Assembly (NCBI GenBank): GCA_958295855.1
Contig: OY282383.1
Location: 183,178-247,177 of the forward strand
Source: an uncultured Poribacteria bacterium
GTDB lineage: Bacteria > Poribacteria > WGA-4E > WGA-3G
DNA length: 64,000 nt
Direction: 5' to 3'
The position numbers and the translations under genes were made by a program. This document shows positions 3,389-59,846 of this stretch, piece after piece. Below the pieces are notes generated by a model. That model was not told the origin of the DNA. It was given only the letters and a program-made list of their open reading frames with translations, and searched no databases. The number at the start of each line of letters is the position of its first letter. Positions within the stretch are counted from its first letter, which is position 1.

Positions 3389-3563
3389 TGGGGGTGTCTC
3401 CTTTCATTGCGTTGCGTGGCTATAAACATTTCGCCCCTAACGGGGCTAAAGATGTGAACTTGCTAAACAAAGGCGTGCTTACAAGCAGAAGTCGGCGCGC
3501 TTGACTCAGCATAAATAATTGCTAAGGCTATCAGAACAGTTGCCAATGCCTAAGACGCTCTTC

Positions 3564-3604
3564 TCCGCGTAATCCGCGTAATCCGCGTAATCCGCGATTC
3601 AGAC
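3564..3604. repeat. CCGCGTAATCCGCG (x3) ATTCAGAC repeat, same family as the Rpn-flanking repeats
   Basis: Direct sequence match to positions 30-76 and 1396-1530. Confidence 0.8.
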
Positions 3605-3610
3605 AATAGA

Positions 3611-3642
3611 GGTCACGGCACACGGAGTGTGCCTACTACCTT
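3611..3642. repeat. Hairpin module (GGTCACGGCACACGGAGTGTGCCTACTAC) overlapping the 3' end of the RM gene
   Basis: Same family as 14592-14702 and 47276-47392. In the gene's frame it encodes VVGTLRVP plus the stop codon. Confidence 0.8.
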
Positions 3643-27176: not shown

Positions 27177-27790
27177 GATAGCAAGCTTTTCGTCATTCCT
27201 TGCGGAGTAATCAGGTTGCAAGACGCATCGCGCAATGCACTGTAGATCTCGTCGGAGGTTTCTGATGCCTTAATTGTTTGTAGGGGCAGTGCCTTGTGCC
27301 TGCCCTTCCCCTCCGAATCGCAACACTTTTACAAAAAAGTTGAATATTCCGCTGACATGTGGTAAAATTCGTATTTTCGTCATTCCTTGCGGAGAATTCA
27401 GGTCGCAAGACGCATCTGGCAATGCACTGTAGATCTCGTCGGAGGTTTCTGATGCCTTAATTGTTTGTAGGGGCAGTGCCTTGTGCCTGCCCTTCCCCTC
27501 CGAATCGCAACACTCTTACAAAAAAGTCGAATATTCCGCTGACATGTGGTAAAATTCGCCTTTTCGTCATTCCTTGCGGAGTAATCAGGTTGCAAGACGC
27601 ATCTGGCGCTGCACTGTAGCTCTCGTCGGAGGTTTCTGATGCCTTAATTGTTTGTAGGGGCAGTGCCTTGTGCCTGCCCTTCCCCTCCGAATCGCAACAC
27701 TTTTACAAAAAAGTTGAATATTCCGCTGACATGTGGTAAAATTTGCGGCGTAATGGCATTAACCCCCTGCAAAGCAGGGGCAAATACCCT
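27177..27790 (+). repeat. Three tandem copies of a composite unit of about 184 bp, then a palindromic element
   Basis: Tandem periodicity starting at about 27177, 27361 and 27545. Module order: TTTTCGTCATTCCTTGCGGAGTAATCAG; CTGTAGATCTCGTCGGAGGTTTC; GGGCAGTGCCTTGTGCCTGCCC; promoter-like TTGAATATTCCGCTGACATGTGGTAAAAT. Confidence 0.9.
27714..27742 (+). promoter_or_regulatory. Promoter-like element TTGAAT, 17-bp spacer, TGgTAAAAT (extended -10); promoter-proximal copy of three
   Basis: Identical elements at about 27346-27374 and 27530-27558. Oriented toward fumC. Confidence 0.5.
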
Positions 27791-27831: not shown

Positions 27832-29217
27832 ATGCGAACTGAAACAGATAGCATGGGCAGCCTCCAGGTCCCAGCCGACCGGTACTGGGGCGCACAGACA
27901 CAACGCGCCCTCCAAAATTTTAGAATCGGCGATGAACGTCTGCCACGCGCGGCGATATGGGCACTCGGCACTGTGAAACAGGCAGTCGCGCACGTGAATG
28001 CGGACCTCGGTTTGCTTGAACCTCGGCTTGCGGATGCAATCAGCACTGCAGCACAGGAGGTTATTGATGGCACATTGGATGACCATTTTCCGCTCCGAAT
28101 TTGGCAGACAGGCAGCGGAACACAGACAAATATGAACGTGAATGAAGTCATTGCAAATCGGGCAATTGAGCAACTGGGTGGCGAAATGGGCAGCAAGCAT
28201 CCCATCCACCCCAACGACCACGTCAATAAGTCTCAATCAACAAACGACGTTTTTCCGACAGCTATCCATTTGGCGCTCTTAAAGCAGATTCGGGAGTTTA
28301 TGTTGCCGCGCCTTAGCGCACTACGAGATGCGTTTGCAGAGAAGGCATCCGCCTTCGAGGAAATTGTTAAGATCGGGCGAACGCATCTGATGGATGCAAC
28401 ACCGCTCACGCTTGGACAGGAGTTCAGCGCCTATACACAACAACTTACTCATGCAGAGACGCGCATAACCGATTCCCTCCCACACCTCTCTGAGCTTCCA
28501 ATTGGCGGCACGGCTGTCGGGACAGGATTAAATACGCATCCAGACTATACGGCGCGCGTGGTGGCGAGGCTGGCGGAGATGACCGGATATCCACTCCAGC
28601 GTGCCTCAAACGCGTTTGAAGCACTTGCATGCAGGGATGCCGTGGTGAGTGCGAGTGGCGCGTTGAAGACGCTGGCGGTTGGCCTGTTTAAGATAGCAAA
28701 CGACATCCGGTGGCTCGCCTCGGGGCCGCGGTGTGGACTGGGTGAGTTGCAGTTGCCTGAGATGGAACCAGGAAGCTCAATTATGCCGGGGAAGGTGAAT
28801 CCAACACAGTGTGAGGCTGTGACAATGGTGTGTGCACAGGTGCTCGGGAACGACACGACGCTGACGTTTGCAGGTGCCAACGGGGCGTTGCAACTGAATG
28901 TGTTTATGCCTGTGATTGCGTATAACGCTTTGCAATCCATACAACTTCTCGGTGACGCGTGCGAATCATTCCGCAAAAACTGTGTGGAAGGCATCGTGCC
29001 GAACAAGGAAGCGATTGGGCAGCACCTCTCGGAATCGCTGATGCTCGTTACGGCGTTAACACCGCATATTGGCTACGATAGGGCAGCAAAGGTAGCACAA
29101 TACGCGCATGAGCAGGGCTGCACGCTCCGCGAAGCTGCTATTGCCCTGGAGGTATTAACGGCAGAGGCGTTTGATGAATTTGTCGTGCCGGGGGACATGA
29201 CGAAGCCGAATCTATAA
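27832..29217 (+). CDS. fumC: Class II fumarate hydratase
   Basis: ORF 27808..29217. Start set at [27 protein letters not shown] by alignment to the canonical FumC N-terminus. [16 protein letters not shown] signature. Confidence 0.9.
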
Positions 29218-29396
29218 TTGGTTGCAGGCTGTCGACATACTGCCCATCAGCCCCCCGCACCCCGACACAGGCAACAATGAAAAATTTTTTGTCGTGCCGG
29301 GGGACATGACGAAGCCGAATCTATAATTGGTTGCAGGCTGTCGACATACTGCCCATCAGCCCCCCGCACCCCGACACAGGCAACAATGAAAAATTT
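29181..29396 (+). repeat. Tandem duplication of about 108 bp spanning the fumC stop codon
   Basis: The segment 29181-29289 is repeated almost exactly at 29290-29396. The first copy includes the last 12 codons of fumC. Confidence 0.85.
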
Positions 29397-29399
29397 ACT

Positions 29400-29752
29400 G
29401 ATTTTTCATTTAGGGTAATGCCCCGCAAAGCGGGGAATCACCCTGTCACCTGTGTTGCGACGTGCATTCAGATGTAACCTTAGCCCCAGCGGGGCGACAT
29501 GTGTATAGCCGCGCATGCCGACCCTCCTCCTTAGCCCCAGCGGGGCGACAGGTGCTAAGGGTGCATAAGAAACCTCCGACGACATCTACTGTAGCGGCAG
29601 TGCCTTGTGCCTGCCCATCTACATCGTCAGAACACTCCTGCCAATGGTATTTGCCCCTGCTTTGCAGGGGTTTCATACCAAGTTGTGAATGGCCAATGAA
29701 CAACTTTTTTATTTCTTACTTATGCTGATTACTCCGCAAGGAAAGACAAAAA
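29400..29752. repeat. Mosaic of intergenic repeat modules (palindromic element, GCCCCAGCGGGGC hairpin x2, GGCAGTGCCTTGTGCCTGCC, CTCCGCAAGGAAAGACAAAAA)
   Basis: Module families recur across the window. Confidence 0.8.
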
Positions 29753-36058: not shown

Positions 36059-36462
36059 ATTTTCGCTATTCCTTGCGGTGTAATCAGGTTGTAAGGTTCA
36101 TCGAGGGTTACACTGTAGATCTCGCTGGAGGTTTTCGCTATTCCTTGCGGAGTAATCAGGTTTTCGCTATTCCTTGCGGTGTAATCAGGTTGTAAGGTTC
36201 ATCGAGGGTTACACTGTAGATCTCGCTGGAGGTTTTCGCTAAAAGGGTTCGAAGGTGCCAAGAATTTTGACACCTTGTTCCTGTCTGTAATTTGCGGAGA
36301 ATTCAGCATGGGCAGGCACAAGGCACTGCCCCTACAGATACAAGCCTTGCATCAAAAACCTCCGACGAGATCTCTAATGCGATGACAACTACATAATGCC
36401 AATGGTATTTGCCCCTGCTTTGCAGGGGTTTTATACCAATTCGAGTTCTCCGCAAGGAATGA
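36059..36462. repeat. rpoB-rpoC intergenic mosaic: two copies of TTTTCGCTATTCCTTGCGGTGTAATCAGGTTGTAAGGTTCATCGAGGGTTACACTGTAGATCTCGCTGGAGG, plus GGGCAGGCACAAGGCACTGCCCCTACAG and a palindromic element
   Basis: Direct reading of the sequence. Provides the rpoC SD and the rpoB stop codon. Confidence 0.85.
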
Positions 36463-39400
36463 CTAAAGGTCTGAGTCGCGATTGAGTGTCACGTTCAGAC
36501 CAAGGCTCTGGAGTTCTCGCACGAGCACGTTAAACGATTCGGGCGTGCCGGGCGGGTTTGGGTTCAGCCCCTTAACTATGGATTCATAGATTTCCGATCT
36601 GCCTGCCACGTCGTCCGATTTGAGGGTGAGCATCTCCTGGAGCGTATGCGCAGCGCCATAGGCTTCAAGTGCCCACACTTCCATTTCACCGAGTCGCTGG
36701 CCGCCATGTTGCGCCTTACCGCCCAGAGGTTGCTGGGTGACAAGCGAGTAAGGGCCTGTGGAGCGCGCATGCATCTTGTCTGCTACAAGATGGTTCAGTT
36801 TAAGGAAATAGACGTAGCCGACTGTGACTTCTTGGGCAAAGGGTTCACCTGTCCTGCCATCATAAAGTACGCTTTTCCCTGTCTTTTTACTGCGTTCGGG
36901 GAGGTTCGTTTTTCCGAGCAGTTCAAAGATTTCAGTCTCTGTTGCTCCGTCAAATACGGGGGATTCTGCGCGTATGCCTAATGCGTGGCACGCCCATCCG
37001 AGGTGAATTTCTAAGATTTGCGCGACATTCATTCGTGATGGGACGCCTAAGGGGTTCAGCACGATTTCAACGGGTGTGCCATCTGGCATATAGGGCATAT
37101 CTTCAGCTGGCAGGATTTTTGCCACAACGCCTTTATTGCCATAACGGCCTGCCATTTTATCGCCAACGGAAATGGGACGTTTACTCGCGATATAAACTTT
37201 GACGCGTTTGATAACACCGGGTTTGAGTTCATCTCCCATCTCCAATTGCTTGAGGGCGCGTTCTTTCTCCTCTGTGTAGGCGGCTATCCTGCCTTGCGCC
37301 ATCTCCTCAACGCGGCGAATGTGTTCCATTGCGGCAGCATCCGTTACGCAAACGGATGATAACGCTATGCCAGGTGTGTCTAATAGCTCAGCTGTCACTG
37401 TGTCACCCGCAGCAAACGACGTTGGGGCAGCACTTTGTTCGGAATTCCCGCCCTGCCCCTTTGCCTCTTCACTGCTTTGCTTCCCGCCCGGTTTCCCATC
37501 ATGGGCAACCAGGAGGATAGCCTCCGCGTTGGTATGTTCCCCACTTTGCTTCCCGCCCTGCCCCTTTGCCTCTTCACCCTTTTCCCCATCGTGCCTAACC
37601 TGTGCCACTACAGGCAATGCAAGTTCACAACCAAGGAGCATGTTGCGTATTTCTTCGTCCTTCCGGTGGCGTATGGATGCGATGTGCGTCCTCCACGTCT
37701 CCTCGCTCTGCTTACGTTTGGATTCATAGCGCAATTCTTCAATTCTTGATGCGCCTGTTTCCGAACGTGTCCAGCCGCCGCGGCGTTGCAATCCATCTGG
37801 CTTTCGGGAAAACACTTTGACATCAATTACTATGCCTTCAACGCCGGGGCGGATGTAGGTGGAGGCATCGCGGACATCTCGTGCTTTTTCGCCGAAGATG
37901 GCGTGCAGCAGTTTTTCTTCGGGGCCATACTCACTTTCGCCTTTGGGCGTAATTTTTCCCACGAGGATACTGCCGGCACTGACAACACTGCCAACGCGGA
38001 TGATGCCTTCCTCATCAAGCTGCAAAAGGCGTTGCTCGCTCATGTTCGGAATGTCGCGCGTTATCTCCTCTGGGCCCACCTTCGTTTCGCGTGCCTCTAC
38101 TTCGACTTCTTCAATATGAATAGAGGTAAAGGTGTCCTTGCGGATGAGGGTTTCACTAATGAGGATAGAGTCCTCATAGTTGTGCCCGCCCCAGGGCATA
38201 TAGGCGCACAAGATATTTCTGCCGAGGGCGAGTTCACCTCCGTCGGTGGATGTGCCGTCGGCAATAACATCGCCTGCTTGCACTTTATCGCCTACAGAAA
38301 CGATTGGATGCTGGTGGATACAGGTGCCACTGTTACTGCGCTTGAAAGTCTGGAGTTTGTACTGGTCGTATCCCATTTCGCTAAATCCATGCTCGCCGGT
38401 GTCGGTATGCAGCACTTCGCCGGTGTGTATGAGGATTTCGTCAGCGGAGATACTTGCGACGGTGCCGCTGCGGATGGCGGTTCGGAGGGCTCCGGAGTCC
38501 AGTGCGGCGCGGGTTTCCATGCCTGTAGCTACAAGAGGGGCTTCCGGACGGATGAGGGGGACGGCTTGGCGTTGGTGGTTGGCTCCCATCAATGCGCGGT
38601 TCGCGTCTTCGTGCTCGAGGAACGGAACAAGGGAGGCAGAAACGCCAACTATCTGTTGCGGCGCGATGCCAACATAGTCAATTTCAGTGGATTTCGTTTC
38701 TTTGAATTCTATGACGTCGCCCTCTTTGGCATCGTTCCAGCGTCGCATGGCACGGACAGAATAGCCATGGCGGTTTTTCTTTCCTGCTTTATGGAAAGCA
38801 TCTGCGGATGCAATGGTACAGCCCAGCTCTGCATCTGCAGTCAAATACTCAATCCGGTCAGTGAGCTTACCCTCAACAATGACTTGATAGGGCGTTTCCA
38901 AGAACCCGTAGCGATTGACGCGTGCGAATGTAGCGAGCGATACAATCAGCCCGATTGAGGGCCCTTCTGGGGTTTCAAGCGGACATACACGCCCGAAATG
39001 CGTTTCGTGAACGTCGCGGACAGCTGCGGTTGCCCTGTCGCGATGTAGTCCGCCGGGCCCGATTGCGGAGATGCGGCGTTTGTGCGTCAACTCATCCAGG
39101 GGATTGATTTGTTGCATAAACTGCGAGAGTTGGTTAGAGCCAAAAAACTCACGGAGTGCCATCATGAGTGGTTTGGGGTTCACCAATGCGCCGGGTGTTG
39201 CTTTGGCGCGGTCCTTGAGGATATCGACAGCACTGAGGCGTTCGCGTGTCGTTCTACGGATTTGGAATAATCCCATTCTGAATTGGTTTTCTAGCAGTTC
39301 CCCGATAACTCTGACGCGCCGATTTTCGAGATTGTCCTGGTCGTCCTTGGGTACAAGTTTGTTCTGCACCTGTATGAGGTATGCCAGTGTTGCGGTGATA

Positions 39401-41013: not shown

Positions 41014-41039
41014 TTGATGCGGTCTCCTTTTGGTACCGG

Positions 41040-41739
41040 ACTCTGGTGGTGGGCAGGCACAAGGCACTGCCCGTACGGCGCAATGAAATCCCGAGAATAA
41101 AAAAGTTGTTTGCTTTTCGCGCACAACTTGGCTTGCAAGCTTCGCCAAAAAGTGGTGGGCAGGCACAAGGCACTGCCCCTACGGACGCGCCGCCTTTTAA
41201 CCTATTGGCAATAGCATAACAGAATATTATACACTATAATTAGGGGAAAGTCAAGAAAAAATGCATTTTTGTTATTCCTTGCGGAGTAATCAGCATAAGT
41301 AAGAAATAAAAAAGTTGTTCATAAAAATTCACAACTTGGTATGAAACCCCTGCAAAGCAGGGGCAAATACCATTGGCAAGACACATCCAGCAATGCACTG
41401 TAGCTCTCGTTGGAGGTTTCTTATGCAACCTTTCGGGCCAATGGCTGCCCGCCCACCCGTTTCCGTATTGTGGCTAAAAAAGGGGGTGCTTGTTTTTGAC
41501 GTTAATCAAGCTAGGGCATTTAGTTTTCAGTAGTTTTGAGTAAGGGGCGTGGTTGGGTGAGGATTAAGAATTTTCGTCTATGCCTAGTATTTTGATTGGA
41601 TTATGTGGTGTTAATGGCATTGGAGCTCTCGTCGGAGGTTTTGGTCTATGTCTAGTATAATGTGGTATAAAGGTTGACACACCACGTTAACTTGGTATAC
41701 TGTATTAAGGTACGGAAACCCCGTGCTACGGGAGACAAA
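41040..41739. repeat. Repeat-dense intergenic region (GGGCAGGCACAAGGCACTGCCC x2, palindromic element, CCCGCCCACCCGTTTCCG, GGGCATTTAGTTTTCAG, and others)
   Basis: Module families shared with other intergenic regions. Confidence 0.8.
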
Positions 41740-42270: not shown

Positions 42271-43574
42271 ACAGATATTATGAGAGAAACCTCACCGCTA
42301 GTCCCAGTGACTCGGCTGGAAGACAAGAAGGGTGGAAGAAGGGAAAAAACACCGCCCCCCAACCTTACTGTCTTCCATACTGTCTGCCATTTTTCCAATC
42401 TTCAAAAATACTAGTCTGTTGCATCATTTGTGCTTTTTGGTTAGTGGTATTTACCCCTGCTTTGCAGGGGCAGATACCCGGTCAAGGTTTTGCCGGGGCG
42501 CAATCGACTGAGTCACCCCGAGCGCGGGCGCGCGAGCTCGGCATCTATATCGGGAGCCTTCCTACCGGTGAGTACAACGCAATCACCGACGTGCCCGGGG
42601 TCAAAGTAGGACACGTCACCCTGAAGCAGGGGGAGTCAATTCGCACTGGTGTCACCGCTATCCTTCCGCGCGATGATATTTGGGAAGCGCGTCTGTTTGG
42701 CGCAGCACATACCATTCATGGCAACGGTGAAGCCACCGGCATCGCCCGAATTAATCAAGCCGGGTGGATTGAGTCCCCGATTTTGTTGACAAATACCCTG
42801 AGTGTCGGGGCTGTTCACGATGGTGTTGTCCGGTACATTGTCAAGCGGTATCCGGACAATAACATTGTGCTGCCGATTGTGGCAGAGTGTTACGATGGCG
42901 GCTTGAACGACATCAGCGGGCTCCATGTAACTGCACAGCATGCCATTGAATCCATTGAGAACGCCACCTCCGGTAAGGTAGCAGAGGGCAGTGTAGGCGG
43001 CGGTACAGGTATGCGATGCTACGGGTTCAAAGCCGGTATCGGTACTGCCTCGCGGGTACTCCCACCAAACAGGGGCGGATGGAAAGTCGGGGTACTCGTC
43101 AACGCAAACGGCGGACGACGACATCAGTTACGCATTGATGGCGTGCCGGTGGGTAAGGTACTTGATGATGCCCAGCAGAACCCAGGCAGGGACGGCTCGT
43201 TTATCATCGTTATCGCGACGAACGCGCCGTTAACGCATCGGCAGTTGAAACAGCTGGCGATGCGTGCAACGCACGGCCTCGCCCGCACAGGCACACCAAG
43301 CACAGATGGCAGTGGTGAGTTCGTTATCGCGTTTTCTACCGCCAATATTTTTCCACGCGGCACAGAAACAGGTACCTTTCACATCCAGATGGTAGTCAAC
43401 TCACGCTTGAATTCTCTCTTTCAAGCTGTCATTGAGGCAACAGAGGAGGCTATTGTGAATTCAATGACGATGGCAACCACAACCACTGGCCGCAACGGCA
43501 GAACAATGCACGCGATTCCATTGGATGGGTTGCAACAGGTGATGCAGCAGTTTTCGTCATTCCTTGCGGAGTAA
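42267..43574 (+). CDS. Peptidase family S58 / P1 (DmpA-like L-aminopeptidase / D-Ala esterase-amidase family)
   Basis: 435 aa with a DmpA/ArgJ-like fold signature. A palindromic element sits inside the N-terminal hydrophobic region. The C-terminal FSSFLAE* is encoded by a repeat module. Confidence 0.55.
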   Translation: MNRYYERNLTASPSDSAGRQEGWKKGKNTAPQPYCLPYCLPFFQSSKILVCCIICAFWLVVFTPALQGQIPGQGFAGAQSTESPRARARELGIYIGSLPTGEYNAITDVPGVKVGHVTLKQGESIRTGVTAILPRDDIWEARLFGAAHTIHGNGEATGIARINQAGWIESPILLTNTLSVGAVHDGVVRYIVKRYPDNNIVLPIVAECYDGGLNDISGLHVTAQHAIESIENATSGKVAEGSVGGGTGMRCYGFKAGIGTASRVLPPNRGGWKVGVLVNANGGRRHQLRIDGVPVGKVLDDAQQNPGRDGSFIIVIATNAPLTHRQLKQLAMRATHGLARTGTPSTDGSGEFVIAFSTANIFPRGTETGTFHIQMVVNSRLNSLFQAVIEATEEAIVNSMTMATTTTGRNGRTMHAIPLDGLQQVMQQFSSFLAE

Positions 43575-43826
43575 TCAGCATGGGTATGAAACCCCTGCTT
43601 TGCAGGGGCAAATACCATTGGCAGGATAGTTCTGACGGGCAGGCACAAGGCACTGCCCCTACAGTAGATCTCGTCGGAGGTTTCTGATGCAAGTTTTTTA
43701 ATGCTTAATTAGCAGGGAACACACTACAACTCATGTCGGAGGTTTCTGACGCAATGTTCGTAGGGGTGGTGCCTTGTGCCTACCCACATACTGGAGTATA
43801 TCGCGATTCGGACATCGCTCCTACGT
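43555..43826. repeat. Intergenic mosaic (TTTTCGTCATTCCTTGCGGAGTAATCAG, palindromic element, GGGCAGGCACAAGGCACTGCCCCTACAG x2, GATTCGGACATCGCTCCTACG)
   Basis: Module families shared across the window. Confidence 0.85.
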
Positions 43827-45953
43827 CTACCTCTGTCCGCCGGGGGCAAGTGCCGCCGGTACCACCTCATGATGTGAAAACTCAAGCGTGAACGCCCCGC
43901 GCCCCTGCGTCATTGAGCGGAGCTGGGTTGTATATTGGAACGTTTTTGCTAACGGGATAAAAGCACTGACAAAGTTGAACGCACCTTGCGTACCGCTTTC
44001 GTTAATCTGGGCGCGGCGTGCATTCAGGTCGCCGATAACCTTTCCGACGTGTTCATCTGGTGCCGTGATATGTATCCGCATAATCGGTTCAAGGAGCAGG
44101 GGTTTCGCCGTTCTGACCGCGTTTTCAAAGGCGAGCACAGCCGCCGCCTCAAAGGCGACTTCTGAGGAATCTGTTGAATGACAGGAACCACCGGTGAGCG
44201 TTACCTTGATGTCTTGCAGTGGGTATCCGATGAGCGCACCGCTTCCCATCGCACCTTTGAGCGCGTTCTGAATGGCAGGAATGTATTGCCGTGGAATCTG
44301 CGTCTCATCCGTCTCATCCGCAAACTGAAACCCGCCGTCTCGTTCCAATGGGGCAACAGTGAGTACCACATCGCCATAAATGCCTTCCTCATCTGTTTTA
44401 TGGATGTGTGTGCCTCGCGCTTCAGCAGGCGTGCTGATAGTCTCCCGATATGCCACCTGTAGTTTGCTCACGCGCGCGTTCACACCAAACTCGCGGCGCA
44501 TCCGGTCGGTGAGAATTTCTAGGTGGAGTTCGCCCATCCCAGAGATAATCCGTTGCCCCGTCTCTTTATCAATACCGACGGTGAACGTCGGGTCTTCGTC
44601 CATTAATTTTTGGAGTGTCTCCTCCAGTGTGTCTGCATCACTGGCGCGTTCAGGTTCAATTGCGATGGAGATAACGGGCTGTGGAAAAGTGATGGATTCT
44701 AACAGGATAGGATGCTTCGCATCTGCCAATGTATCGCCTGTTTTCGTATCCCGAAGCCCGACGAGGGCAACGATGTCTCCTGCGTAAGCGGCATCACAAA
44801 CCGCCTCTTTGTTGGCATGCATCTGTAGAATGCGGTTCACCCGCTCCCGTTTGCCGGAACCGACGTTATAGATGACTTCCCCACGTTTCAGGGTGCCTGA
44901 ATAGATACGGCAATAGACCAGTTTGTCCACAGTGGGGTGGCTTGCGACTTTAAAGGCTAACGCTGCAAACGGGGCAGTATCATCTGAGTAGCGGGTGGTA
45001 TTTGCCCCCGCTTTGCGGGGCAGATTCTTGGTGGCTTTATTGTGGCTGGAGGTTGTTCTCACAGAAGAGGTATTTGGCACTTCACCTTCAATTGGGGGTA
45101 GGTCGACAGGCGAAGGCAGAAAATCAATGATTGCATCAAGCAGGGGTTGAACGCCCCGATTTTTGAGGGAACTTCCGCATAATACAGGGACTAACGTTCC
45201 CTTCAAAGTAGCAGTACGAATGCCTGCCACTAACTCGGCGGAGGTTATCTCCTGGCCCTCCAAGTATTTTTCAAGCAACGCGTCCTCTTCAACAACGACG
45301 CTCTCAAAAAGGGTTTCTCGGGCGAGTGCCACTTCGGCGTGAAACTCATGTGGAATTTCGGATTCTTGATAGGTCTGCCCGAGGTTTGCCGCATCCCAAT
45401 GCATCGCCTTCTGTCTTACCAGGTCAACAACCCCTGCGAAATCGGTTCCCTCACCAATTGGCAATTGGAGGGGCACCGGATTGGTGCCGAGTCGCTCCTT
45501 CATCATCTCAAGCACGCGAACGAAATTGGCACCGACCCTATCCATCTTATTGACGAAGATGATGCGCGGTACATCGTAGCGTTCAGCTTGATGCCAGACA
45601 GTTTCTGACTGTGGCTCCACACCGCCAACAGCACAAAAAAGTGCAACAGCACCATCTAACACGCGCAAGGAACGTTCCACTTCTACTGTGAAATCGACAT
45701 GGCCGGGCGTATCAATCAGGTGAATCGCGTGTTCTCTCCAGAAACAGGTTGTTGCGGCGGCGGTAATCGTCACCCCGCGTTCTCGTTCTTGCGCCATCCA
45801 ATCCATTTCTGCAGTGCCGTCATCTACTGCACCAATCTTATGCTTTTTGCCAGTATAGAAGAGAATTCGTTCGGTTGTGGTTGTTTTGCCTGCATCGATG
45901 TGCGCTGTAATACCGATGTTGCGCACGTTTTCAATAGAATATTCGCGTGCCAT
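43827..45953 (-). CDS. fusA: Elongation factor G (fusA-type; could be a paralog, as no rpsL/rpsG precede it)
   Basis: 708 aa with canonical G-domain motifs: [21 protein letters not shown]. Carries an in-frame insertion from a palindromic element in the G' region. Confidence 0.9.
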
Positions 45954-46097
45954 TTTTTTGTCATTCCATTAATTGGGTTTCTGCTCCGATTTTTCCGTTG
46001 TCAAAATCGGGTTTCTTACTCATTGTAGTGTGTTCCCTGCTAATTAAGCATTAAAAAACTTGCAATTGAAAATAGTGGCAAACATCGGAGCGCGCGC
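45954..46097. repeat. Intergenic repeat modules (GGAATGACAAAAAAA SD-bearing module, CATGCGGAAAAATCGGAGCAGAAACC-like, GTTCCCTGCTAATTAAG, CCACTATTTTCAATAGTGG-like)
   Basis: Shared with 50200-50550 and 57360-57775. Confidence 0.75.
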
Positions 46098-47275: not shown

Positions 47276-47392
47276 GGTCACGGCACGCGGAGGGCTCCTA
47301 CGACTTTGGTCACGGCACGCGGAGCGTGCCTACTACTTTGTGCCTACTACTTTTGGTCACGGCACGCGGAGCGTGCCTACTACTGTTTCCAT
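47276..47392. repeat. Tandem hairpin modules (GGTCACGGCACGCGGAGCGTGCCTACTACT x3, one degenerate) overlapping the 3' end of the DUF1156 gene
   Basis: Same family as 3611-3642 and 14592-14702. Encodes VVGTLRVP plus the stop codon. Confidence 0.85.
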
Positions 47393-50164
47393 CTGCTGTG
47401 GGGCACCCATCGCGGCAGAGATATACGGCCACTCTGTCACGAGGTTGTTGTACGCCGCAGCACTCGACGCATCGCCACGCACCTCATAGTACGCATACAA
47501 GACGCGCGCCAAACGTTTCGCAGACTCCGAATCGCGCATCGCACGCGCAACACCAGCACAGCCCAAAATACCACCGCTGTGCTCTACGCCCGATAAATGC
47601 CACATCATCCGCAGACACCCCTCCCACGCTGTCATCTCTTTTCGATTTTCACGCTCAGCGTATTCTTCCGCTCGCAACAGCCGAACCTTGCCGCGTGACG
47701 CGATGAGCACTCTGTCGTGCAGCGCGGCGATGTCTACATCCTTCGCTTTTGAAAGCCCCTCTGCATCCCCGAAGTTGCCCGCCATGTAGCCGTGCTGCTG
47801 CAACCACGTCAAACAGAACTGACTCTCCGCATCCAGTTCGCCTGTCTCTTTTTCATGATAGGCGGTGATTTCGTTGTTGATGTGCATGAGTGCCTCGCGG
47901 ATTGGCACAATCTCACCGCTGATTCGCATCACTTTGCTATAGCGGGAGTAGACCTCCATGCCGGGGCCGATGGCGGCTTGTGCTAAATCGACCGGCCTGA
48001 TGTTTGTGATGCGGGTGAGTCTGTCAAGTGCGGGTGGCATCTCTTTTTTCAGTGCTTGTAGAAATTCGTTGCGGGTTATGGTGGGGGCATCCTCAGGGCG
48101 CGGCCGACACACTAACACAACAGAGGATGCCAGCGCGTTTTTAGTCGCCTTAAGAGCTGTTGGCCGCTCTGTCCGCATTGGCCAGGTGCCGGTTACCTGA
48201 AAACCAGCGTTGACGATTGCCGTGAGCATCGTCTCCCAGCCGGTGGAGGTTTTTCCATCCTGTTCCTCTTCCTGCTGTTTGTAGGCGTAGAAAATGGATG
48301 TGGGAAATACATCTGTGCAGTGTTGTCGCATTTGCAGCAATGCCTTGCCGAGCAATTCCTCAAAGTGTTGTGTAGGATCTTTAAATCGAGGACTCGCGGT
48401 TATCTCCTCATCCTTTGGAGTCATCATGCCGGCAAACAGTTCGGTATAGGTATCGCGCAGAAGGGGTCTCAGCCAGACATAGAAGAACTCGGACAAATCT
48501 GCATAGCCGATATTATCGTAGTAGGGCGGATCTGTAATAAAAACAGGCATATCCTGAGCATGCGGCGTAGTACATACATCCGCCTGATACGCTTCACCAG
48601 TGTTCGCTGAGGTAGGGAACCTCTCAACAACCCTTGCAATCCATGCTATCTGCGCCAGCCAGTTTTGCGTTGAAGTTGAGAACGGATTTGCTTCAGCAAA
48701 ATCCCACATCATTGAGATTTTTTGCATGCCGAAAACTGGCATAATACTATTCCCCCCGGTGTCCCATATAGCGAAACTGGAACCACTCTCAGCGGTCCGG
48801 TCAATGGCAAAGGCAAGGTAAGTACAAACAGTTGAGGCGTATTCGGATTCTCCTCCATCTTGCAGGATAAGATTACGGACTTCTCCCAGAAGGTCTTTGA
48901 AAGTAGTGAGAGCCGTTAACTGACGTTCTGTGAAAAGTTGATGCCACTCTGTAAACCCATAATTCTGTATAGCAAAACCTAACGCTCGATGCGGCAGTTT
49001 ACCCCTAGGTTTCCACGTAGGTTGAACAGACTGGGCAGTGTGGATATGCGTATTCGCGGGAGGCACGAATATTTTGGGTTTACCGTCTGCGACTATCGCT
49101 GTCATTACCGCTCCCATCTTTCCTGCTTTCGCTTGTTCTCGGACATAAGGCAACTTGACAGCACTCCCGCACGCAAAGCAGTAGGCACCTGTTCGGCTGA
49201 CTGTAGGCTTCGGCACGCCTTCATTATCGGTTTGCACGACCCATGAAATCGTGTTGGATTCCCGGTCAACAACCGGCTTTGTCCAATGCTCATTACCTTT
49301 CTTTCTTGAGAGTTGGAAGGTTTTCATCAGCGGCATCTGGAGTCCACACGCAGGATTGATACACGGCACTGTGCGCGCCCAGATCCATGCCACAACCGTG
49401 GCAGTTTGCCCTGTGGGCAATTCCACGGGTGGATAGAGATGTCCGATGCGTTTGTGTGCTGCCGCGCGCATCCACGCCCCGTAGTAACGGATGTCGGATG
49501 CCAAGCCTGCGGTGCCTTTCCATGGCACACGCGTTTTCCTTTTACCTGTGCCGGTGAACATTCCCATCGGATCGGCATCAGGATGGACCGGTTTCTGGTT
49601 GTGAAACGTCGGGGGTAATTCAATCATCGCCTTGTTGAGCAGGACAGGCAGCGGATTTAGATCGGAGGCGCGGGCACGTAATCCCAGGCGTTGTGCCTCA
49701 AGCGGGATGGAGCCGCCCCCACAAAACGGATCATAGATTGCGGGGCAGTGGTCGCGGAGGTATTGTAGCACTGCATCGGGATTGTTTTCAAACCGCTGGC
49801 GACAATCCGTTAGGTCTTCGGCGTTGTTGCGTGCGACAGAGATGGCGATTTCACGGCGTGCCTCTGCCAAGAGGTTTTCATCGGTGCTATTTTTCCAGAG
49901 CACGAGTCTCCGGAGGAGGTGATGGAGTCGGTTTCGTTCTGCGTTCTGCTCGGGTTCGGTTGGGAATTCGTCTATGCATTCGGAGGGGTCGTCCACCATG
50001 CTGGCGAAGATAACGGCGCGGCATGCAGCGAGGGGACGACGCGCCCACCACTTGTGCAGTGTTGAGGGGTGTCCATGCGTCAGCGAAGCGTCTTTTGCAG
50101 ACTCTTGGTTGATATCTTGGAGGGGTATATTGACCTCAATGAGTTTTTTGCGGTAAGTCGTCAT
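47357..50164 (-). CDS. DUF1156-domain DNA methyltransferase (putative N6-adenine / N4-cytosine, DPPY motif); orphan, with no DUF499/DUF3780 partners nearby
   Basis: 935 aa. N-terminal HKWWARRPLAA motif typical of DUF1156. FITDPPYYDNIGYADLSEFF catalytic motif. Confidence 0.6.
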   Translation of the reverse strand: MTTYRKKLIEVNIPLQDINQESAKDASLTHGHPSTLHKWWARRPLAACRAVIFASMVDDPSECIDEFPTEPEQNAERNRLHHLLRRLVLWKNSTDENLLAEARREIAISVARNNAEDLTDCRQRFENNPDAVLQYLRDHCPAIYDPFCGGGSIPLEAQRLGLRARASDLNPLPVLLNKAMIELPPTFHNQKPVHPDADPMGMFTGTGKRKTRVPWKGTAGLASDIRYYGAWMRAAAHKRIGHLYPPVELPTGQTATVVAWIWARTVPCINPACGLQMPLMKTFQLSRKKGNEHWTKPVVDRESNTISWVVQTDNEGVPKPTVSRTGAYCFACGSAVKLPYVREQAKAGKMGAVMTAIVADGKPKIFVPPANTHIHTAQSVQPTWKPRGKLPHRALGFAIQNYGFTEWHQLFTERQLTALTTFKDLLGEVRNLILQDGGESEYASTVCTYLAFAIDRTAESGSSFAIWDTGGNSIMPVFGMQKISMMWDFAEANPFSTSTQNWLAQIAWIARVVERFPTSANTGEAYQADVCTTPHAQDMPVFITDPPYYDNIGYADLSEFFYVWLRPLLRDTYTELFAGMMTPKDEEITASPRFKDPTQHFEELLGKALLQMRQHCTDVFPTSIFYAYKQQEEEQDGKTSTGWETMLTAIVNAGFQVTGTWPMRTERPTALKATKNALASSVVLVCRPRPEDAPTITRNEFLQALKKEMPPALDRLTRITNIRPVDLAQAAIGPGMEVYSRYSKVMRISGEIVPIREALMHINNEITAYHEKETGELDAESQFCLTWLQQHGYMAGNFGDAEGLSKAKDVDIAALHDRVLIASRGKVRLLRAEEYAERENRKEMTAWEGCLRMMWHLSGVEHSGGILGCAGVARAMRDSESAKRLARVLYAYYEVRGDASSAAAYNNLVTEWPYISAAMGAPQQMETVVGTLRVP

Positions 50165-50551
50165 AGTGCTTTCTGCGCGCCCCTGAAGCCGGGCGGAGAC
50201 AGGGCTCCGCCCTTACAATTCAAAGCCATTTGATATGCGCCTGCGCGGGCAGGGCGGACCGCATCAGATGCGCCTGGTTTGTGCTCCGCGCAGAGTAATC
50301 AGGAAGTTTAACCACTATTGAAAATAGTGGCAAACGTCAGGATAGTTCTGACGGGCAGGCACAAGGCACTGTTTCCCCTACAGAGTAGATGTCGTTAGAA
50401 GTTTCTTATGCAACCTTAATTAGCAGGGAGTACTCTAGAACTAATAAGAAACCCGATTTTGAACCGGGTATCCGCCCCTGCTTTGCAGGGGTAAATACCT
50501 CATGCGGAAAAATCGGAGCAGAAACCGAATTGATGAAAGACTGCTTGTTAA
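50165..50551. repeat. Intergenic mosaic (CCACTATTGAAAATAGTGG hairpin, GGGCAGGCACAAGGCACTG, CCTTAATTAGCAGGGAG, palindromic element, CATGCGGAAAAATCGGAGCAGAAACCG)
   Basis: Module families shared with 46000-46090 and 57360-57480. Confidence 0.8.
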
Positions 50552-56330: not shown

Positions 56331-57359
56331 ATGAAATCAAGAACCGATAGCCGCGCGCAAGCCGCACAAAAACCTCGATATGCAGCCATTATAGGGACAG
56401 GAGCTTACCTCCCTGAAAGGGTTGTCACCAATTTCGATCTCGAGAAAATGGTGGATACCAGCGACGAATGGATTCGTCAACGCACAGGCATTGCTGAACG
56501 GCGCATCGCGGATGACGATGTCGCCACCTCAGACCTCAGTGTCCATGCTGCCCGATGGGCTATTAAAAACGCGCAAATCGATCCGATTGACATTGACATG
56601 ATTCTCGTCGCGACTGTTACACCCGATACCTTTTTCCCATCAACGGCTTGCTATGTCCAGAAAGGCATCGGTGCAAAGAACGCATCTGCAATGGATATAT
56701 CAGCCGCATGCGCCGGCTTCCTTTATGGCCTTGATTTAGCGGATGGCTTGATTAAATCCGGACGGTACGATACTATCTTGGTTGTCGGGGGCGAAGTTTT
56801 TAACAATATTGTTGACTGGAAAGATAGGAATACATGTGTTCTCTTCGGAGATGGCGCAGGTGCTGCTGTTGTACAAGCCACCGAAGAACCAAAAGGGATT
56901 CTCGCTTCTTACATCGGTTCTGATGGGGATTATGCTGACATTAACCTACTCGGCATCCCTGCTGGCGGTTCCAGAATGCCACTGACAGCAGAAGGAATCG
57001 ACCAGAAACTGGACAAAATTCAGATGAATGGGCGGGAAGTCTTCAAGCTCGGTGTCCGGCTAATGCCTGAAGCCGCACAGCGGGTACTGCGCCAAGCAAA
57101 CGTCCATATTGACGACATTGATTTGTTAATACCCCATCAAGCGAATTTGCGCATCATCGAAGCCGTAGGCGACAGGCTTGGGGTGCCGCGTGAGAAGGTG
57201 TACGTTAACGTTGACAAATACGGCAATACCTCCGCAGCAACAGTGATCATCGCACTAGACGAAGCAATTCGCGAGGGACGCGCCACACCGGGAGACCTCA
57301 TTCTGCTCGTAACTTTCGGCGCAGGCCTGACATGGGGAAGCACACTCTTGCGTCTTTAA
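56331..57359 (+). CDS. fabH: 3-oxoacyl-ACP synthase III
   Basis: 342 aa. Active-site Cys context AACAGF. His/Asn region GNTSAAT. Confidence 0.9.
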   Translation: MKSRTDSRAQAAQKPRYAAIIGTGAYLPERVVTNFDLEKMVDTSDEWIRQRTGIAERRIADDDVATSDLSVHAARWAIKNAQIDPIDIDMILVATVTPDTFFPSTACYVQKGIGAKNASAMDISAACAGFLYGLDLADGLIKSGRYDTILVVGGEVFNNIVDWKDRNTCVLFGDGAGAAVVQATEEPKGILASYIGSDGDYADINLLGIPAGGSRMPLTAEGIDQKLDKIQMNGREVFKLGVRLMPEAAQRVLRQANVHIDDIDLLIPHQANLRIIEAVGDRLGVPREKVYVNVDKYGNTSAATVIIALDEAIREGRATPGDLILLVTFGAGLTWGSTLLRL

Positions 57360-57775
57360 CAATTCGGTTTCCGCTCCGATTTTTCCGCATGAGGTATTAA
57401 CCCCTGCAAAGCAGGGGCGGATACCCGGTTCAAAATCGGGTTTCCGGCAAGTTTGTAGCGTGTTCCCTGCTAATTAAGGTTGCATAAGAAACCTCGGACG
57501 AGAGCTACTGTAGCGGCAGTGCCTTGTGCCTGCCCATCTACATCGTCAGAACACTCCTGCAACCTGATTACTCCGCAAGGAATAACAAAAAGACGAGATC
57601 TGCCACAACGTCACAACAACGAATAATTAAGCGTTAAAATACTTGCATAAGAAACCTCCGACGAGAGCTACTGTAGCGGCAGTGCCTTGTGCCTGCCCAT
57701 CTACATCGTCAGAACACTCCTGCAACCTGATTACTCTGCAAGGAATGACAAAAAACTCTGCAAGGAATGACAAAA
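57360..57775. repeat. Intergenic mosaic between fabH and fabD, including two copies of GAAACCTC(C/G)GACGAGAGCTACTGTAGCGGCAGTGCCTTGTGCCTGCCCATCTACATCGTCAGAACACTCCTGCAACCTGATTACTC(C/T)GCAAGGAAT(A/G)ACAAAAA
   Basis: Duplicate unit of about 110 bp at 57478-57590 and 57645-57758. The last copy supplies the fabD SD (AAGGAATGACAAAAATG). Confidence 0.85.
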
Positions 57776-58756
57776 ATGCAACACGCCTTTATTTTTCCAG
57801 GACAAGGTTCGCAAAAAGTTGGCATGGGCGCTGAATTGGCACGAACCTATCCAATTGCCGAGGACGTTTTTGATGAGGCAGAGACAGTTTTAGGCAGACC
57901 ACTACGGCAGCTCTGTTTCCACGGCCCTGAGGCAGAACTAAAGCGGACAGAAAACACGCAACTTGCCATTTTGGCCTGTAGTGTTGCAACGTTGCGGGTG
58001 TTAGCACAATTAGGGGTTGTGCCGAAAGTAGTTGCAGGGCACAGTTTGGGAGAGTACTCCGCGCTCGTGGCGGCCGGTGTCCTTGAATTTGCCGATGCAT
58101 TGCAGTTAGTGTGCGCACGCGCACACTTCATGGCAGAAGCCGGTGCCAATGGTATAAACCCCTGTTTACAGGGGCAAATACCACCGCAGAACGGCACCAT
58201 GGCAGCAATCCTCGGCATGGAAACGGAACAACTCCAAAATCTTTGTGAGAAAGCTAATGGTGTTGTTAACATCGCCAATTACAACTGCCCCGGGCAATTG
58301 GTAATTTCCGGAGAAGTTGATGCTGTCAACCATGTTATTGCGCTCGCCAAGGGTGAAATCGGCGCAAGACGCTGTCGCACTTTGCCCGTAAGTGGCGCGT
58401 TTCACTCACCGTTGATGGCACCTGCACAACAAAAGTTCGGCGAGGCACTGAATGCAGTGACGTTGCATCCGCCTCAAGTCGCTATCGCGATGAACGTAAC
58501 AGGCGAGTTTGCCACAGATGCAGATAATATCCGAAGCCTCTTGTTTCAACAGATAACGCAACCCGTTCAGTGGGAGAAATCTCTGCACACTATGGCGAAG
58601 GCCGGCATCTCACATTTTGTGGAGGTTGGCCCGGGGAAAGTCTTGTGTGGCTTAGTGAACCGGACGCTCCGTGGCAGCAGTACCGCACATATTGAAGATA
58701 TCGACAGTCTTGAGGTTTTTCGTCATTCCTTGCGGAGTAATCAGGACGCAAGATAG
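57776..58756 (+). CDS. fabD: Malonyl-CoA:ACP transacylase
   Basis: ORF 57767..58756. Start set at MQHAFIFPGQGSQ. GHSLGEYSA active site. In-frame palindromic element at 58151-58182. The last 12 codons come from a repeat module. Confidence 0.9.
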   Translation: MQHAFIFPGQGSQKVGMGAELARTYPIAEDVFDEAETVLGRPLRQLCFHGPEAELKRTENTQLAILACSVATLRVLAQLGVVPKVVAGHSLGEYSALVAAGVLEFADALQLVCARAHFMAEAGANGINPCLQGQIPPQNGTMAAILGMETEQLQNLCEKANGVVNIANYNCPGQLVISGEVDAVNHVIALAKGEIGARRCRTLPVSGAFHSPLMAPAQQKFGEALNAVTLHPPQVAIAMNVTGEFATDADNIRSLLFQQITQPVQWEKSLHTMAKAGISHFVEVGPGKVLCGLVNRTLRGSSTAHIEDIDSLEVFRHSLRSNQDAR

Positions 58757-59075
58757 CTCCCACAATACACTGTAGATCTCGTCGGAGGTTTTCGTCATTC
58801 CTTGCGGAGTAATCAGCATGGGTATGAAACCCCTGCTTTGCAGGGGCAAATACCATTGGCAAGATAGTTCTCACAATACACTGTAGATCTCGTCGGAGGT
58901 TTTCGTCATTCCTTGCGGAGTAATCAGCATGGGTATGAAACCCCTGCTTTGCAGGGGCAAATACCATTGGCAAGATAGTTCTCACAATACACGGTAAATC
59001 TCGTCGGAGGTTTTCGTCATTCCTTGCATGAGAAATCTCCGACGAGATCTGCCACAACGTCACAACTACAACCTT
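58717..59075. repeat. Tandem composite repeats of about 113 bp (TTTTCGTCATTCCTTGCGGAGTAATCAGCATGGGTATGAAACCCCTGCTTTGCAGGGGCAAATACCATTGGCAAGATAGTTCTCACAATACACTGTAGATCTCGTCGGAGG), two full copies plus partials
   Basis: Unit starts at 58717, 58789, 58902 and 59015. Confidence 0.9.
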
Positions 59076-59108
59076 AGAACTAGGCAATGACAAAAGATTA
59101 GGAACGAC

Positions 59109-59846
59109 ATGCTAATAGGAAAAACAGCAATTGTTACAGGTGCGTCGCGCGGCATCGGTGCCGAGATCGCTCGCAAACTTTGTGAGGCCGGTGCAAACGT
59201 TGCTCTCTGTTCGCGTTCCGCCGAGGCGGTTGCACAAATCGCCGATATGTTGCAGAGTGAAGGCCACACCGCTATCCATCAGGCTGCCGATATCTCTCAA
59301 AAAGCAGATGTTGAAGCCTTTATCAAGATGGTGCTTGACCGGTTTTCACAGCTCGACATCCTTGTAAATAACGCTGGTATTACCCGCGATACCTTGCTCA
59401 TGCGCCTCAAAGATGCGGACTGGGATACTGTACTACAGACAAATCTCACAGGCACTATGTATTGCACCCGTGCAGTACTTCGCCCGATGATACGTCAGAA
59501 AAGCGGACGAATTATCAATATTTCGTCAGTGGTTGGCATCGTGGGAAACGCAGGACAAGCGAATTACGCCGCCGCGAAAGCGGGTATCATCGGATTGACA
59601 AAAGCCACCGCGAAAGAGGTTGGCGCGCGCGGCATTACCGTGAACGCTATTGCTCCCGGCTTTATTACCACCGATATGACAGCACAAATACCGGAACAGA
59701 ATCAGAAACAACTGCTTGAACTGATTCCATTACGCGAATTTGGCCGCCCAGAAGATGTGGCAGACGCTGTCTGCTTTTTGGCATCTGATGCCGCACGTTA
59801 CATCACCGGCCAAACCCTCCAGGTTGATGGGGGCATGGTGATGTAG
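59109..59846 (+). CDS. fabG: 3-oxoacyl-ACP reductase
   Basis: 245 aa. TGASRGIG NAD(P)-binding motif. YxxxK catalytic motif. Confidence 0.9.
   Translation: MLIGKTAIVTGASRGIGAEIARKLCEAGANVALCSRSAEAVAQIADMLQSEGHTAIHQAADISQKADVEAFIKMVLDRFSQLDILVNNAGITRDTLLMRLKDADWDTVLQTNLTGTMYCTRAVLRPMIRQKSGRIINISSVVGIVGNAGQANYAAAKAGIIGLTKATAKEVGARGITVNAIAPGFITTDMTAQIPEQNQKQLLELIPLREFGRPEDVADAVCFLASDAARYITGQTLQVDGGMVM

Follow-up and report, generated by a model that had tools for sequence, protein, structure and literature searches.

In an uncultured Poribacteria bacterium, a dispersed repeat with a ribosome-binding-site-like end abuts the start codons of several essential genes

Results

The 64,000-nucleotide (nt) stretch of DNA analysed here (hereafter the window; GenBank assembly GCA_958295855.1, contig OY282383.1) comes from an uncultured Poribacteria bacterium and carries, among other genes, rpoB and rpoC, fusA (encoding EF-G) and fabH, fabD and fabG, with the identities of rpoC, fusA/EF-G, FabG and FabD confirmed by Pfam and synteny. 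Among homologues bearing a name, those nearest to its FabD and EF-G are labelled Candidatus Poribacteria, and a Poribacteria MAG supplied the best GTDB locus. From ~27 kb onward, its intergenic DNA is a mosaic of short modules, and 39% of the window's intergenic bases recur elsewhere in the window. One of these modules, a 28-nt sequence ending in an A-run (module A; consensus CTGATTACTCCGCAAGGAATGACRAAAA, from 24 aligned copies), is the subject of this report. A preliminary description of this DNA had proposed that module A, in reverse orientation, supplies the Shine–Dalgarno (SD) sequence of fabD, rpoC, fusA and, in variant form, fabG, and that, by donating initiation and termination signals, it could standardise the expression of flanking genes. 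Our analysis supports a non-random association with start codons and favours, with only modest confidence, a repeat whose ribosome-binding-site (RBS)-like end is tolerated at gene starts over a cassette built for that purpose.

Module A was sampled across ~100 kb drawn from two genomes (the window and loci of a sister genome). Among the 24 aligned copies, mean column identity is 94%, and GCAAGGAA is unvaried in every one, regardless of context; the module itself is not palindromic. The window holds 17 copies and one 14-nt fragment, or roughly one copy per 4 kb, with GCAAGGAATGACAAAAA matching 18 times at three or fewer mismatches (0.27 expected) and a degenerate 18-mer of the module matching 15 times (0.00 expected). 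All strings quoted in the preliminary description are present, and module A abuts the ATGs of fabD (in tandem), rpoC and fusA, its A-run end lying 0–1 nt from each. This is above chance: when 19 copies (an upper bound on the number in the window) were placed randomly in 10 kb of intergenic DNA and scored as abutting if the A-run end fell 0–2 nt upstream of a start, 0.10 such copies were expected (P(≥3) = 1.6 × 10−4), and the result is similar with the 8 independent blocks as the unit (P(≥2 start-abutting) = 7 × 10−4). The placement of module A against start codons is non-random.

At fabD, positions 57725–57778 read ...CCTGATTACTCTGCAAGGAATGACAAAAA, then ACTCTGCAAGGAATGACAAAA, then ATG: a full copy is followed by a 22-nt copy that perfectly repeats the 3′ part of the first (TRF 57733–57776, period 22, 2.0 copies, 100%), and the last A of this second copy doubles as the A of the ATG at 57776. 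The first in-frame fabD ATG (57767–57769) lies inside the module (GGAATGAC) in the same frame, and both the mechanically listed open reading frame (ORF) and the sister genome's annotation start there; the ATG at 57776 is the more likely start (Table 1). At rpoC (minus strand), CACCGCAAGGAATAGCGAAAAT is followed by the ATG (36058–36056) of a 2101-amino-acid (aa) ORF, with AAGGA at 36074–36070, and at fusA (minus strand) TGGAATGACAAAAAA precedes the ATG (45953–45951) of a 708-aa ORF. The proposed position of an AAGGAA core, 8–10 nt from the ATG, describes fabD (9 nt), is slightly exceeded at rpoC (11 nt) and fails at fusA, where a copy does abut the ATG but only as a 14-nt 3′ fragment that reads TGGAA. 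Nothing but module A precedes the ATG over a stretch of 14 nt at fusA and of 25 nt or more at both rpoC and fabD. A further start-abutting case is sucD of the sister genome (AAGGAATGACAAAAATATG), which is preceded by CTCCGCAAGGAATGACAAAAAACAAGGAATGACAAAAATATG, a 17-nt tandem; its AAGGA lies 10–11 nt from the ATG both there (L003) and in an 84% relative (L004). At proS of the sister genome, two 29-nt copies are followed by tacgaaaaaaATG.

Comparison with relatives shows, at the level of sequence, that module A replaced native leaders at start codons. The rpoC leader reads cAAGGAGcgatgtgataATG in the sister genome (L088) and gcAAGGAGcgaagtaataATG in L090, versus gcAAGGAAtagcgaaaatATG in the window (in longer form, ...tttcAAGGAGcgatgtgataATGAAT and ...cctcgcAAGGAGcgaagtaataATG versus ...caccgcAAGGAAtagcgaaaatATGAAA). 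The native AAGGAG has a gap of 11 nt in both relatives and of 12 nt in L089, which has one more A, and the AAGGAA of the module sits at the identical 11-nt gap. Because outgroup and sister leaders lack the module, the rpoC leader of the window is derived; its rpoB–rpoC spacer measures 404 nt, versus 222 and ~120 nt in relatives, and the last rpoB codons also differ. For fusA, relatives have the native leaders AAGGAaaagATG and AAGGAaacagATG (outgroup leaders gcacaAAGGAaaagATG, with a 14-nt spacer, and gaaaaAAGGAaacagATG), and the window and sister genome have (t/c)GGAATGACAAAAAAATG. In L004, L006 and L008, the orthologous fabH–fabD spacer measures 31, 100 and 41 nt, and the fabD leader ends in caccataaaaATG, aaacaaaaacaATG and cagaagaaaATG, respectively. 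In a scan of GTDB with a fabD profile, L008 was the sole Poribacteria locus among the matches listed.

The fabG leader (GGCAATGACAAAAGATTAGGAACGAC before the ATG at 59109, plus strand), by contrast with its earlier assignment as a variant copy, was rejected as module A. Because ttttAGGAAcaacATG (L004) and tttAGGAAtgatATG (L006) match the window's gattAGGAAcgacATG, the AGGAA of this leader is a native SD, conserved in module-free relatives, and the fabD–fabG repeat block stops just upstream of it, at ~59096.

The strength of the candidate RBS was estimated from duplex energies computed against the usual anti-SD sequence, which was assumed for this organism: these are −5.2 kcal/mol at fabD and rpoC (gap 8–10 nt) and −3.3 kcal/mol at fusA, compared with −7 to −11 kcal/mol for the many window genes that carry (A)AGGAG 5–10 nt upstream. 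The module AAGGAA, a 5-bp match to the assumed anti-SD, falls short of the canonical SDs of the genome and of the native rpoC SD in strength, and is comparable to native weak sites such as those of fabG (−4.2 kcal/mol) and fabF (−5.6 kcal/mol). Native SDs of the AAGGAG/AAGGAA type occur at gaps of 4–11 nt in this genome, and several window genes (for example fumC, 12549 and DUF1232) have no SD and A-rich leaders.

Neither promoter-like nor terminator-like sites were found in the rpoB–rpoC spacer. In the fabH–fabD spacer, terminator-like sites were likewise absent, and the promoter-like matches were weak and did not exceed those of shuffled sequence. Because these spacers have no such sites beyond chance, read-through transcripts should carry the module. 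Module A as a promoter or intrinsic terminator was rejected (no promoter-like site above shuffled sequence and no T-run hairpin). RNA folding predicts pairing (z = −6.5) between the forward copy at the rpoB stop and a reverse copy inside the spacer, one of the two that form the 29-nt tandem there, whereas the start-proximal copy is mostly unpaired. Coupled ORFs of the kind found in mycobacterial interspersed repetitive units (MIRUs) were also rejected: at rpoC, the +1 frame stays open over 141 nt without offering a start codon; no upstream ORF stops at the start of fabD, fusA or proS; and sucD has only a 4-codon one (MTKI, then a stop).

The other end of the argument concerns geometry. Among the 18 window copies (including the fusA fragment), 3 lie at starts, 4 at a stop or 3′ coding end, and 11 are array-internal or elsewhere. 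All seven of the copies at gene boundaries meet the gene with the A-run end and none with the inner CTGATTAC end; module A is the outward-facing terminus of repeat blocks. Reverse orientation before starts and forward orientation after stops follow because module A is the block's outer terminus, and this orientation rule is no evidence of function. Nor did the proposed donation of termination signals hold: the stop codons in forward copies are simply the first in-frame stops met, at varied positions and in varied frames, and no intrinsic terminators were predicted. Coding sequences are lengthened where blocks run into them. RpoB has 5 extra codons relative to the sister genome (36463–36480), its stop lying inside a module A variant, and FabD gains ~13 aa at its C terminus (58717–58756; ..VFRHSLRSNQDAR). 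The first part of the FabD extension is also seen in relatives P0002 and P0003, and the 3′ insertion is older because they share it.

Module A travels with other modules. Module B is AAACCTCCGACGAGATCTACAGT, module C is a hairpin (GGTAT..CCCCTGCTTTGCAGGGG..ATACC), module E is a second hairpin (GTAG-GGGCAGTGCCTTGTGCCTGCCC), and several linker motifs complete a family that contains two hairpins. Modules assemble into units of 72–187 nt that occur singly, inverted or in tandem, with tandem arrays of 187 nt × 3.0, 111 nt × 2.5, 101 nt × 1.8, 29 nt × 2.2 and 22 nt × 2.0. Copy number differs between close genomes: the 22-nt fabD unit has 2.0 copies in the window versus 3.0 in the sister genome, and the 111-nt array 2.5 versus ~1. 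Common units (112-nt K-B-E-A, 111-nt and 187-nt) have different sequences at their two ends, and the rpoB–rpoC block is bounded by inverted module A copies that pair in the predicted fold. At four gene starts, the SD-bearing end stands in tandem, in units of 17, 22, 29 and 29 nt with four different junctions. Slippage at A-runs is a simple explanation of these start-adjacent tandem units; 3′-anchored copying and self-targeted insertion are alternatives. Some 10 partial copies keep the A-run end and 2 lose it; strict 3′-anchored polarity is therefore not absolute, given these two 3′-truncated copies.

The module A family is real, young and lineage-restricted. A sequence model of module A recovered 17 copies from the window. 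It recovered 13 from the two sister-genome loci (L003 and L088), whose identity to the window is 97% for FabD, 99% for EF-G and 94% for the RpoC N terminus; L006 yielded a single degenerate copy, and L004, L089, L090, L091 and L008 yielded none. The 18-mer had zero matches across 79 non-Poribacteria loci, and an exact scan with the 20-mer core had zero across 185,579 GTDB species representatives. In JGI metagenomes, the exact 20-mer matched twice, in both cases as a single chance match, of which the one inspected (L001) is unrelated coding sequence. A plasmid or phage origin was rejected, with no matches in plasmids or phages. As a known RNA family the module was likewise rejected, because Rfam 15 yielded only a tRNA at gathering score across the whole window; within 57300–59200, Rfam gave only sub-threshold chance matches to microRNA models. 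A protein database searched with translated repeat units returned only P0241, an ORF from the window's own genome. This 157-aa protein is annotated antisense across the fabD–fabG array (58590–59093, minus strand), has no homologues elsewhere among 5.8 billion proteins, and is almost certainly a spurious ORF made by the 111-nt (37-codon) repeat.

Start-adjacent sequences resembling module A extend beyond this range. Degenerate A-like leaders are present in L004 at proS (TCTCTGCAAAGTAAATTAAAAA) and sucD (GGCAAGGACTGAGAA), and because of these, start-adjacent A-like sequences predate the recognisable family. In L004, positions 17270–17310 and 18830–18862 place the A-like leaders directly at the proS (cattctctgcaaagtaaattaaaaaATG) and sucD (aaggcAAGGActgagaatttATG) starts.

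Table 1. Positions of module A copies, related repeats and start signals in the window
Feature	Position	Strand	Details
Module A copy (variant ...GGAATAGCGAAAA) abutting rpoC start	36060..36087	−	One T between copy and ATG
Fragment of module A abutting fusA ATG	45954..45967	−	14-nt 3′ fragment (GGAATGACAAAAAA)
Full module A copy in fabH–fabD spacer	57727..57754	+	28 nt (CTGATTACTCTGCAAGGAATGACAAAAA), SD-sense; 34.0 bits, E 5.6e-9
Tandem copy abutting fabD start	57755..57776	+	22 nt, 5′-truncated; AAGGA 57762–57766
Second fabD ATG	57776..57778	+	AAGGA 9 nt upstream; for ATG 57767, AAGGA directly adjacent, no gap
fabH–fabD spacer	57360..57766	+	407 nt; nearly all modules: G, C hairpin, F, K-B-E-A twice, H
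Internal module A copy, fabH–fabD spacer	57564..57591	+	Away from starts
Native fabG SD	59100..59104	+	AGGAA, 4 nt from ATG 59109; kept in module-free relatives
Two module A copies, rpoB–rpoC spacer	36129..36191	−	29-nt tandem; copies 36132–36159 and 36161–36188
Module A copy at rpoC stop	29725..29752	+	A-run end abuts TAA (29755–29753, minus)
Module A copy holding rpoB stop	36443..36467	+	Forward relative to rpoB; TAG 36465–36463 (minus)
Module A copy holding S58 peptidase stop	43551..43578	−	TAA 43572–43574
Module A copy in 3′ end of fabD	58717..58744	−	Read as ..VFRHSLRSNQ..
Tandem array 3′ of the 58717 copy	58748–59027		111-nt units; more module A copies at 58789, 58900 and 59011
Module A copy upstream of rpoB promoter-like site	41266..41293	−	Just upstream; arrangement kept in sister genome
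Tandem array of 187-nt units	27187..27743	−	3.0 units; one module A copy per unit (27187, 27374, 27561)
Module A copies truncated at 3′ end	36294–36306; 50290–50302
Hairpin module E	27285–27305; 36310–36330; 41051–41071; 41157–41177; 43637–43657; 57515–57535; 57678–57698
Hairpin module in frame in fabD	58147–58182		36-nt palindrome GGTAT..CCCCTG.TTT.CAGGGG..ATACC
Hairpin module in frame in EF-G gene	44993–45028	−	Same 36-nt palindrome
Similar hairpin matches	42434–42482 (S58 peptidase); 31835–31884 (rpoC); 26070–26092

Several further features of the window concern copies away from start codons and the remaining modules. The module A copy at 41266 lies immediately upstream of a near-consensus promoter-like site of rpoB (TTGACT 41254–41249, 17-nt spacer, TATAAT 41231–41226), and the copy at 27187 is upstream of another (TTGCTA-17-TATAGT, 27184–27156, minus strand), 70 nt from the next start codon. 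Because they are upstream of promoter-like sites, both copies are probably absent from the transcript of the gene that follows, and the copy at 41266 would probably fall outside the rpoB mRNA. The longest rpoB ORF has its GTG (41166) within a repeat hairpin, but the true start is likely the GTG at 41013–41011, behind AAAGGAG, as the sister annotation has it; two copies of hairpin module E lie in the rpoB 5′ untranslated region (region 41011–41293, minus strand). Modules other than A may hold promoters: two of the three 187-nt units contain a TG-extended promoter-like site, TTGAAT-17-TAAAAT, directed toward fumC (27340–27368 and 27714–27742, plus strand), the last of them 66 nt upstream of the fumC ATG (27808). 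The fumC stop codon (29215–29217) is spanned by a perfect 109-nt tandem duplication (29179–29396, 2.0 copies, 100%).

Repeats also occur within coding sequences. FabD (NGINPCLQGQIP) and EF-G are each 12 aa longer through the 36-nt hairpin, and close relatives have neither insert. In a protein-level comparison, the FabD insert differs within the stem (PCLQG in the window versus PRFAG in the sister genome), possibly through paired changes that preserve the hairpin. RpoC is 2101 aa long in the window versus 1946 aa in the sister genome and 1940–1958 aa in other relatives (already long for bacteria), with an 11-aa indel among its first 700 residues; the extra 155 aa may derive from repeat insertions inside the gene.

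A different repeat vocabulary marks the beginning of the window, where arrays of 9-nt units (TCCGCGTAA; 21–76, 1392–1498 and 3555–3599), unlike the repeats found elsewhere in it, surround a YhgA-like transposase_31 gene (101–1243) and the next two genes and end beside a Type ISP restriction-modification gene (3613–6720). A DUF1156 gene (935 aa, 47357–50164) separates the ADH gene from the trypsin-PDZ gene in both the window and the sister genome, is missing at that position in L004 and L090, has repeats on both its sides, and looks like an inserted gene.

Discussion

We favour the reading, to which we assign a probability of roughly 55%, that module A belongs to a repeat with an RBS-like end whose presence at starts is a tolerated side-effect of spread, rather than the purpose of the repeat. 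Under this reading, mosaic blocks would have expanded into very short spacers (14–122 nt in relatives), their units duplicating in tandem and recombining, until blocks met the neighbouring coding sequences and in some cases entered them, always with the A-run end outward. An upstream gene would then read the module forward, after or across its stop, and a downstream gene would read it reversed, before its start. A block that reached a start codon would replace the native leader, and the module would then provide AAGGAA 9–11 nt from the ATG together with an A-rich spacer, within the native SD range of the lineage; at fusA, it would give only an A-rich leader with GGA. The RBS-like end would thereby let the repeat survive against the starts of essential genes, whether as a selection filter or by exaptation, and would not be the repeat's raison d'être. 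That only a minority of copies lie at starts, and that the core is conserved in every context, both speak against a purpose-built cassette.

Because module A is the only sequence upstream of these essential genes, ribosomes must initiate on module-derived RNA. Use of its SD is likely, because the spacing matches at rpoC and AAGGA is retained at sucD even in L004, and module A is most likely a working, rather weak RBS of rpoC, fabD and the sister sucD, as judged from leaders and spacing. The RBS role given to the module in the preliminary description is thus kept in part: the module replaced native leaders, with the native gap at rpoC, but the core has been lost in the sister fabD. Both the use of AAGGAA by ribosomes and the manner in which blocks spread are what we infer from these comparisons.

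A first alternative is that the association with initiation is a pure by-product, in which ribosomes would initiate on an unstructured A-rich tract (S1 type, SD-independent) and AAGGAA would be irrelevant. Several observations lean this way or weigh against our own reading. In the three module-free relatives, fabD natively has no SD, and the start-proximal fabD copy of the sister genome has lost its GG and reads AAGAAA; because of these two points, SD pairing seems dispensable for fabD, and the A-rich tract may be what matters. The fusA fragment keeps only GGA, with no AAGGA; the AAGGA at the sister proS lies 20 nt from the ATG; and the degenerate A-like leader of L004 proS reads AAAGTAA. Several genes without an SD in the window (for example fumC, 12549 and DUF1232) have A-rich leaders, the core is equally conserved in copies unable to act as an RBS, and the energies depend on an assumed anti-SD. 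Set against the by-product explanation are the natively strong AAGGAG of rpoC, whose gap the module AAGGAA reproduces, the retention of AAGGA at sucD in both L003 and L004, and the use of SDs by most window genes. We consider SD-independent initiation unlikely, while giving it a real share of the probability.

The mode of spread is the second point at which the evidence weighs against the repeat reading: the genome comparisons revealed neither target-site duplications nor a clean empty site, and the window has no transposase whose ends match. Furthermore, the native rpoC leaders of relatives (CCTCGCAAGGAGCGAAG) resemble module A, and the rpoC event could have been a recombination at shared sequence, with part of the family derived from a native leader.

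The cassette proposed in the preliminary description, a dedicated and selected element in which standard initiation signals and, in the opposite orientation, termination signals equalise flanking expression, is improbable. It would account for the enrichment of copies at starts, for the replacement of native RBSs of essential genes at SD-like spacing, for the tandem SD-bearing ends at four gene starts (periods 17, 22, 29 and 29 nt) and for A-like leaders at sucD and proS in the 84% relative as well. However, only 3 of the 18 window copies lie at starts and 4 of the 18 at stops, and the rest, the 11 that touch no gene boundary, are internal or upstream of promoters. The orientation of copies follows from geometry, the core is independent of context and has been lost in the sister's fabD copy, and both the native rpoC SD and the canonical SDs are stronger than that of the module. 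Stops are the first in frame, in varied positions and frames, and terminator-like hairpins with a T-run are lacking.

We give a similarly slim chance to a captured native leader, in which module A would come from, or recombine with, an rpoC- or sucD-type initiation region (CTCGCAAGGAG...ATG), so that some start-adjacent copies would be old homologous leaders or gene-conversion products. The L089 and L090 rpoC leaders (CCTCGCAAGGAGCGAAG) are in register with CTCCGCAAGGAATGACG of module A, the window variant ATAGCGAAAA shares GCGAA with the native rpoC leader, L004 has GGCAAGGACTGAGAA at sucD and TCTCTGCAAAGTAAATTAAAAA at proS, and module junctions between close genomes resemble recombination within shared modules. 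The shared stretch, on the other hand, is only ~10 nt, half of which is the SD itself, the L088 rpoC leader has no CGC, the majority of copies sit within arrays away from any gene start, and the native leaders are unscored by the module A model (R1) at E ≤ 1. Least probable of all is that module A is a self-propagating, portable translation-initiation end, with copies added at A-runs beside starts, 3′-anchored and often 5′-truncated; if true, this would mean hypervariable leaders in which several SDs serve as standby sites tuning rpoC, fabD, sucD and proS, and a mobile RBS element with a copying mechanism undescribed in bacteria.

The module A family joins known kinds of bacterial repeats, without sequence similarity to REP2, MIRU or BIME/NIME. 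It would be classed with them because it shares a leader position, tandem variation, a mosaic build and ORF fusions; a literature search on Poribacteria repeats or miniature inverted-repeat transposable elements (MITEs) found nothing relevant. Neisseria REP2 and Borrelia IR-A/IR-B are intergenic repeats that lie directly in front of ORFs and bring along a promoter, RBS and ATG (PMC3184786), and module A likewise stands immediately upstream of fabD, rpoC, fusA and the sister sucD, with its own ATG in frame at fabD. REP2, however, is a 120–150-bp unit with its own promoter, ~25 copies per genome and no reported role at gene 3′ ends, whereas the RBS piece here, a 28-nt module that terminates variable mosaic blocks, has no promoter-like site of its own, faces stop codons equally often and is far denser. 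MIRUs insert at start codons within operons with little harm to expression, and their internal ORF couples to the gene (PMC12548453). Tandem copy number varies between close genomes here too (2 at fabD versus 3 in the sister genome), but where the internal ORF of a MIRU overlaps the downstream start by −4, module A has an SD-like motif and no consistent coupled ORF, and its copies occur in both orientations, unlike MIRUs, which have the same orientation as the operon.

The BIMEs of Escherichia coli and the NIMEs of Neisseria are mosaic, recombination-prone intergenic blocks of a few motifs or hairpins (PMC3184786), as are the blocks here, whose hairpins include one preceded by GTAG, as in REPs; unlike these, module A blocks reach coding sequence and start codons. 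The GC-rich palindrome of the REP type is matched by module E (GTAG-G-GGCAGTGCCTTGTGCCTGCCC) and hairpin C, and not by module A, which is not palindromic. GTAG regularly precedes hairpin module E (GTAG-G/C-GGCAGTGCCTTGTGCCTGCCC), a signature of RAYT-mobilised REP elements, and a Pfam scan of 40 ORFs of the window revealed no RAYT-type gene. RUP, ERIC-like repeats, Anabaena MITEs and Rickettsia palindromic elements extend gene ends or sit in frame (PMC3184786). In the window, three genes (fabD, rpoB and that of the S58 peptidase) end in module A, and the 36-nt hairpin that is in frame in fabD and EF-G resembles the Rickettsia palindromic elements. MITE target-site duplications were absent in comparisons with L003, L088, L004, L006, L089 and L090, where whole spacers are replaced and breakpoints fall inside modules, and no insertion sequence with module ends occurs in the window, the only transposase-like gene being the YhgA-like one. 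Module A differs from these known systems in having no module promoter, no coupled ORF, no paired terminal inverted repeats on its common units and, in these comparisons, no target-site duplications.

Comparison with module-free relatives shows that a selfish-looking repeat overwrote the native RBSs of rpoC, fusA and fabD and left in their place a seemingly usable SD-like signal, at the native distance in the case of rpoC. The family offers an example of how repeats may colonise very compact genomes without killing the host, and of how repeat-derived leaders may originate. Such repeats also mislead gene calling, as with the fabD start placed in the module, the rpoB ORF start placed in a repeat and the 157-aa antisense ORF. 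In addition, the spacers are hypervariable between genomes that are 94–99% identical in protein, and could serve as strain markers for Poribacteria.

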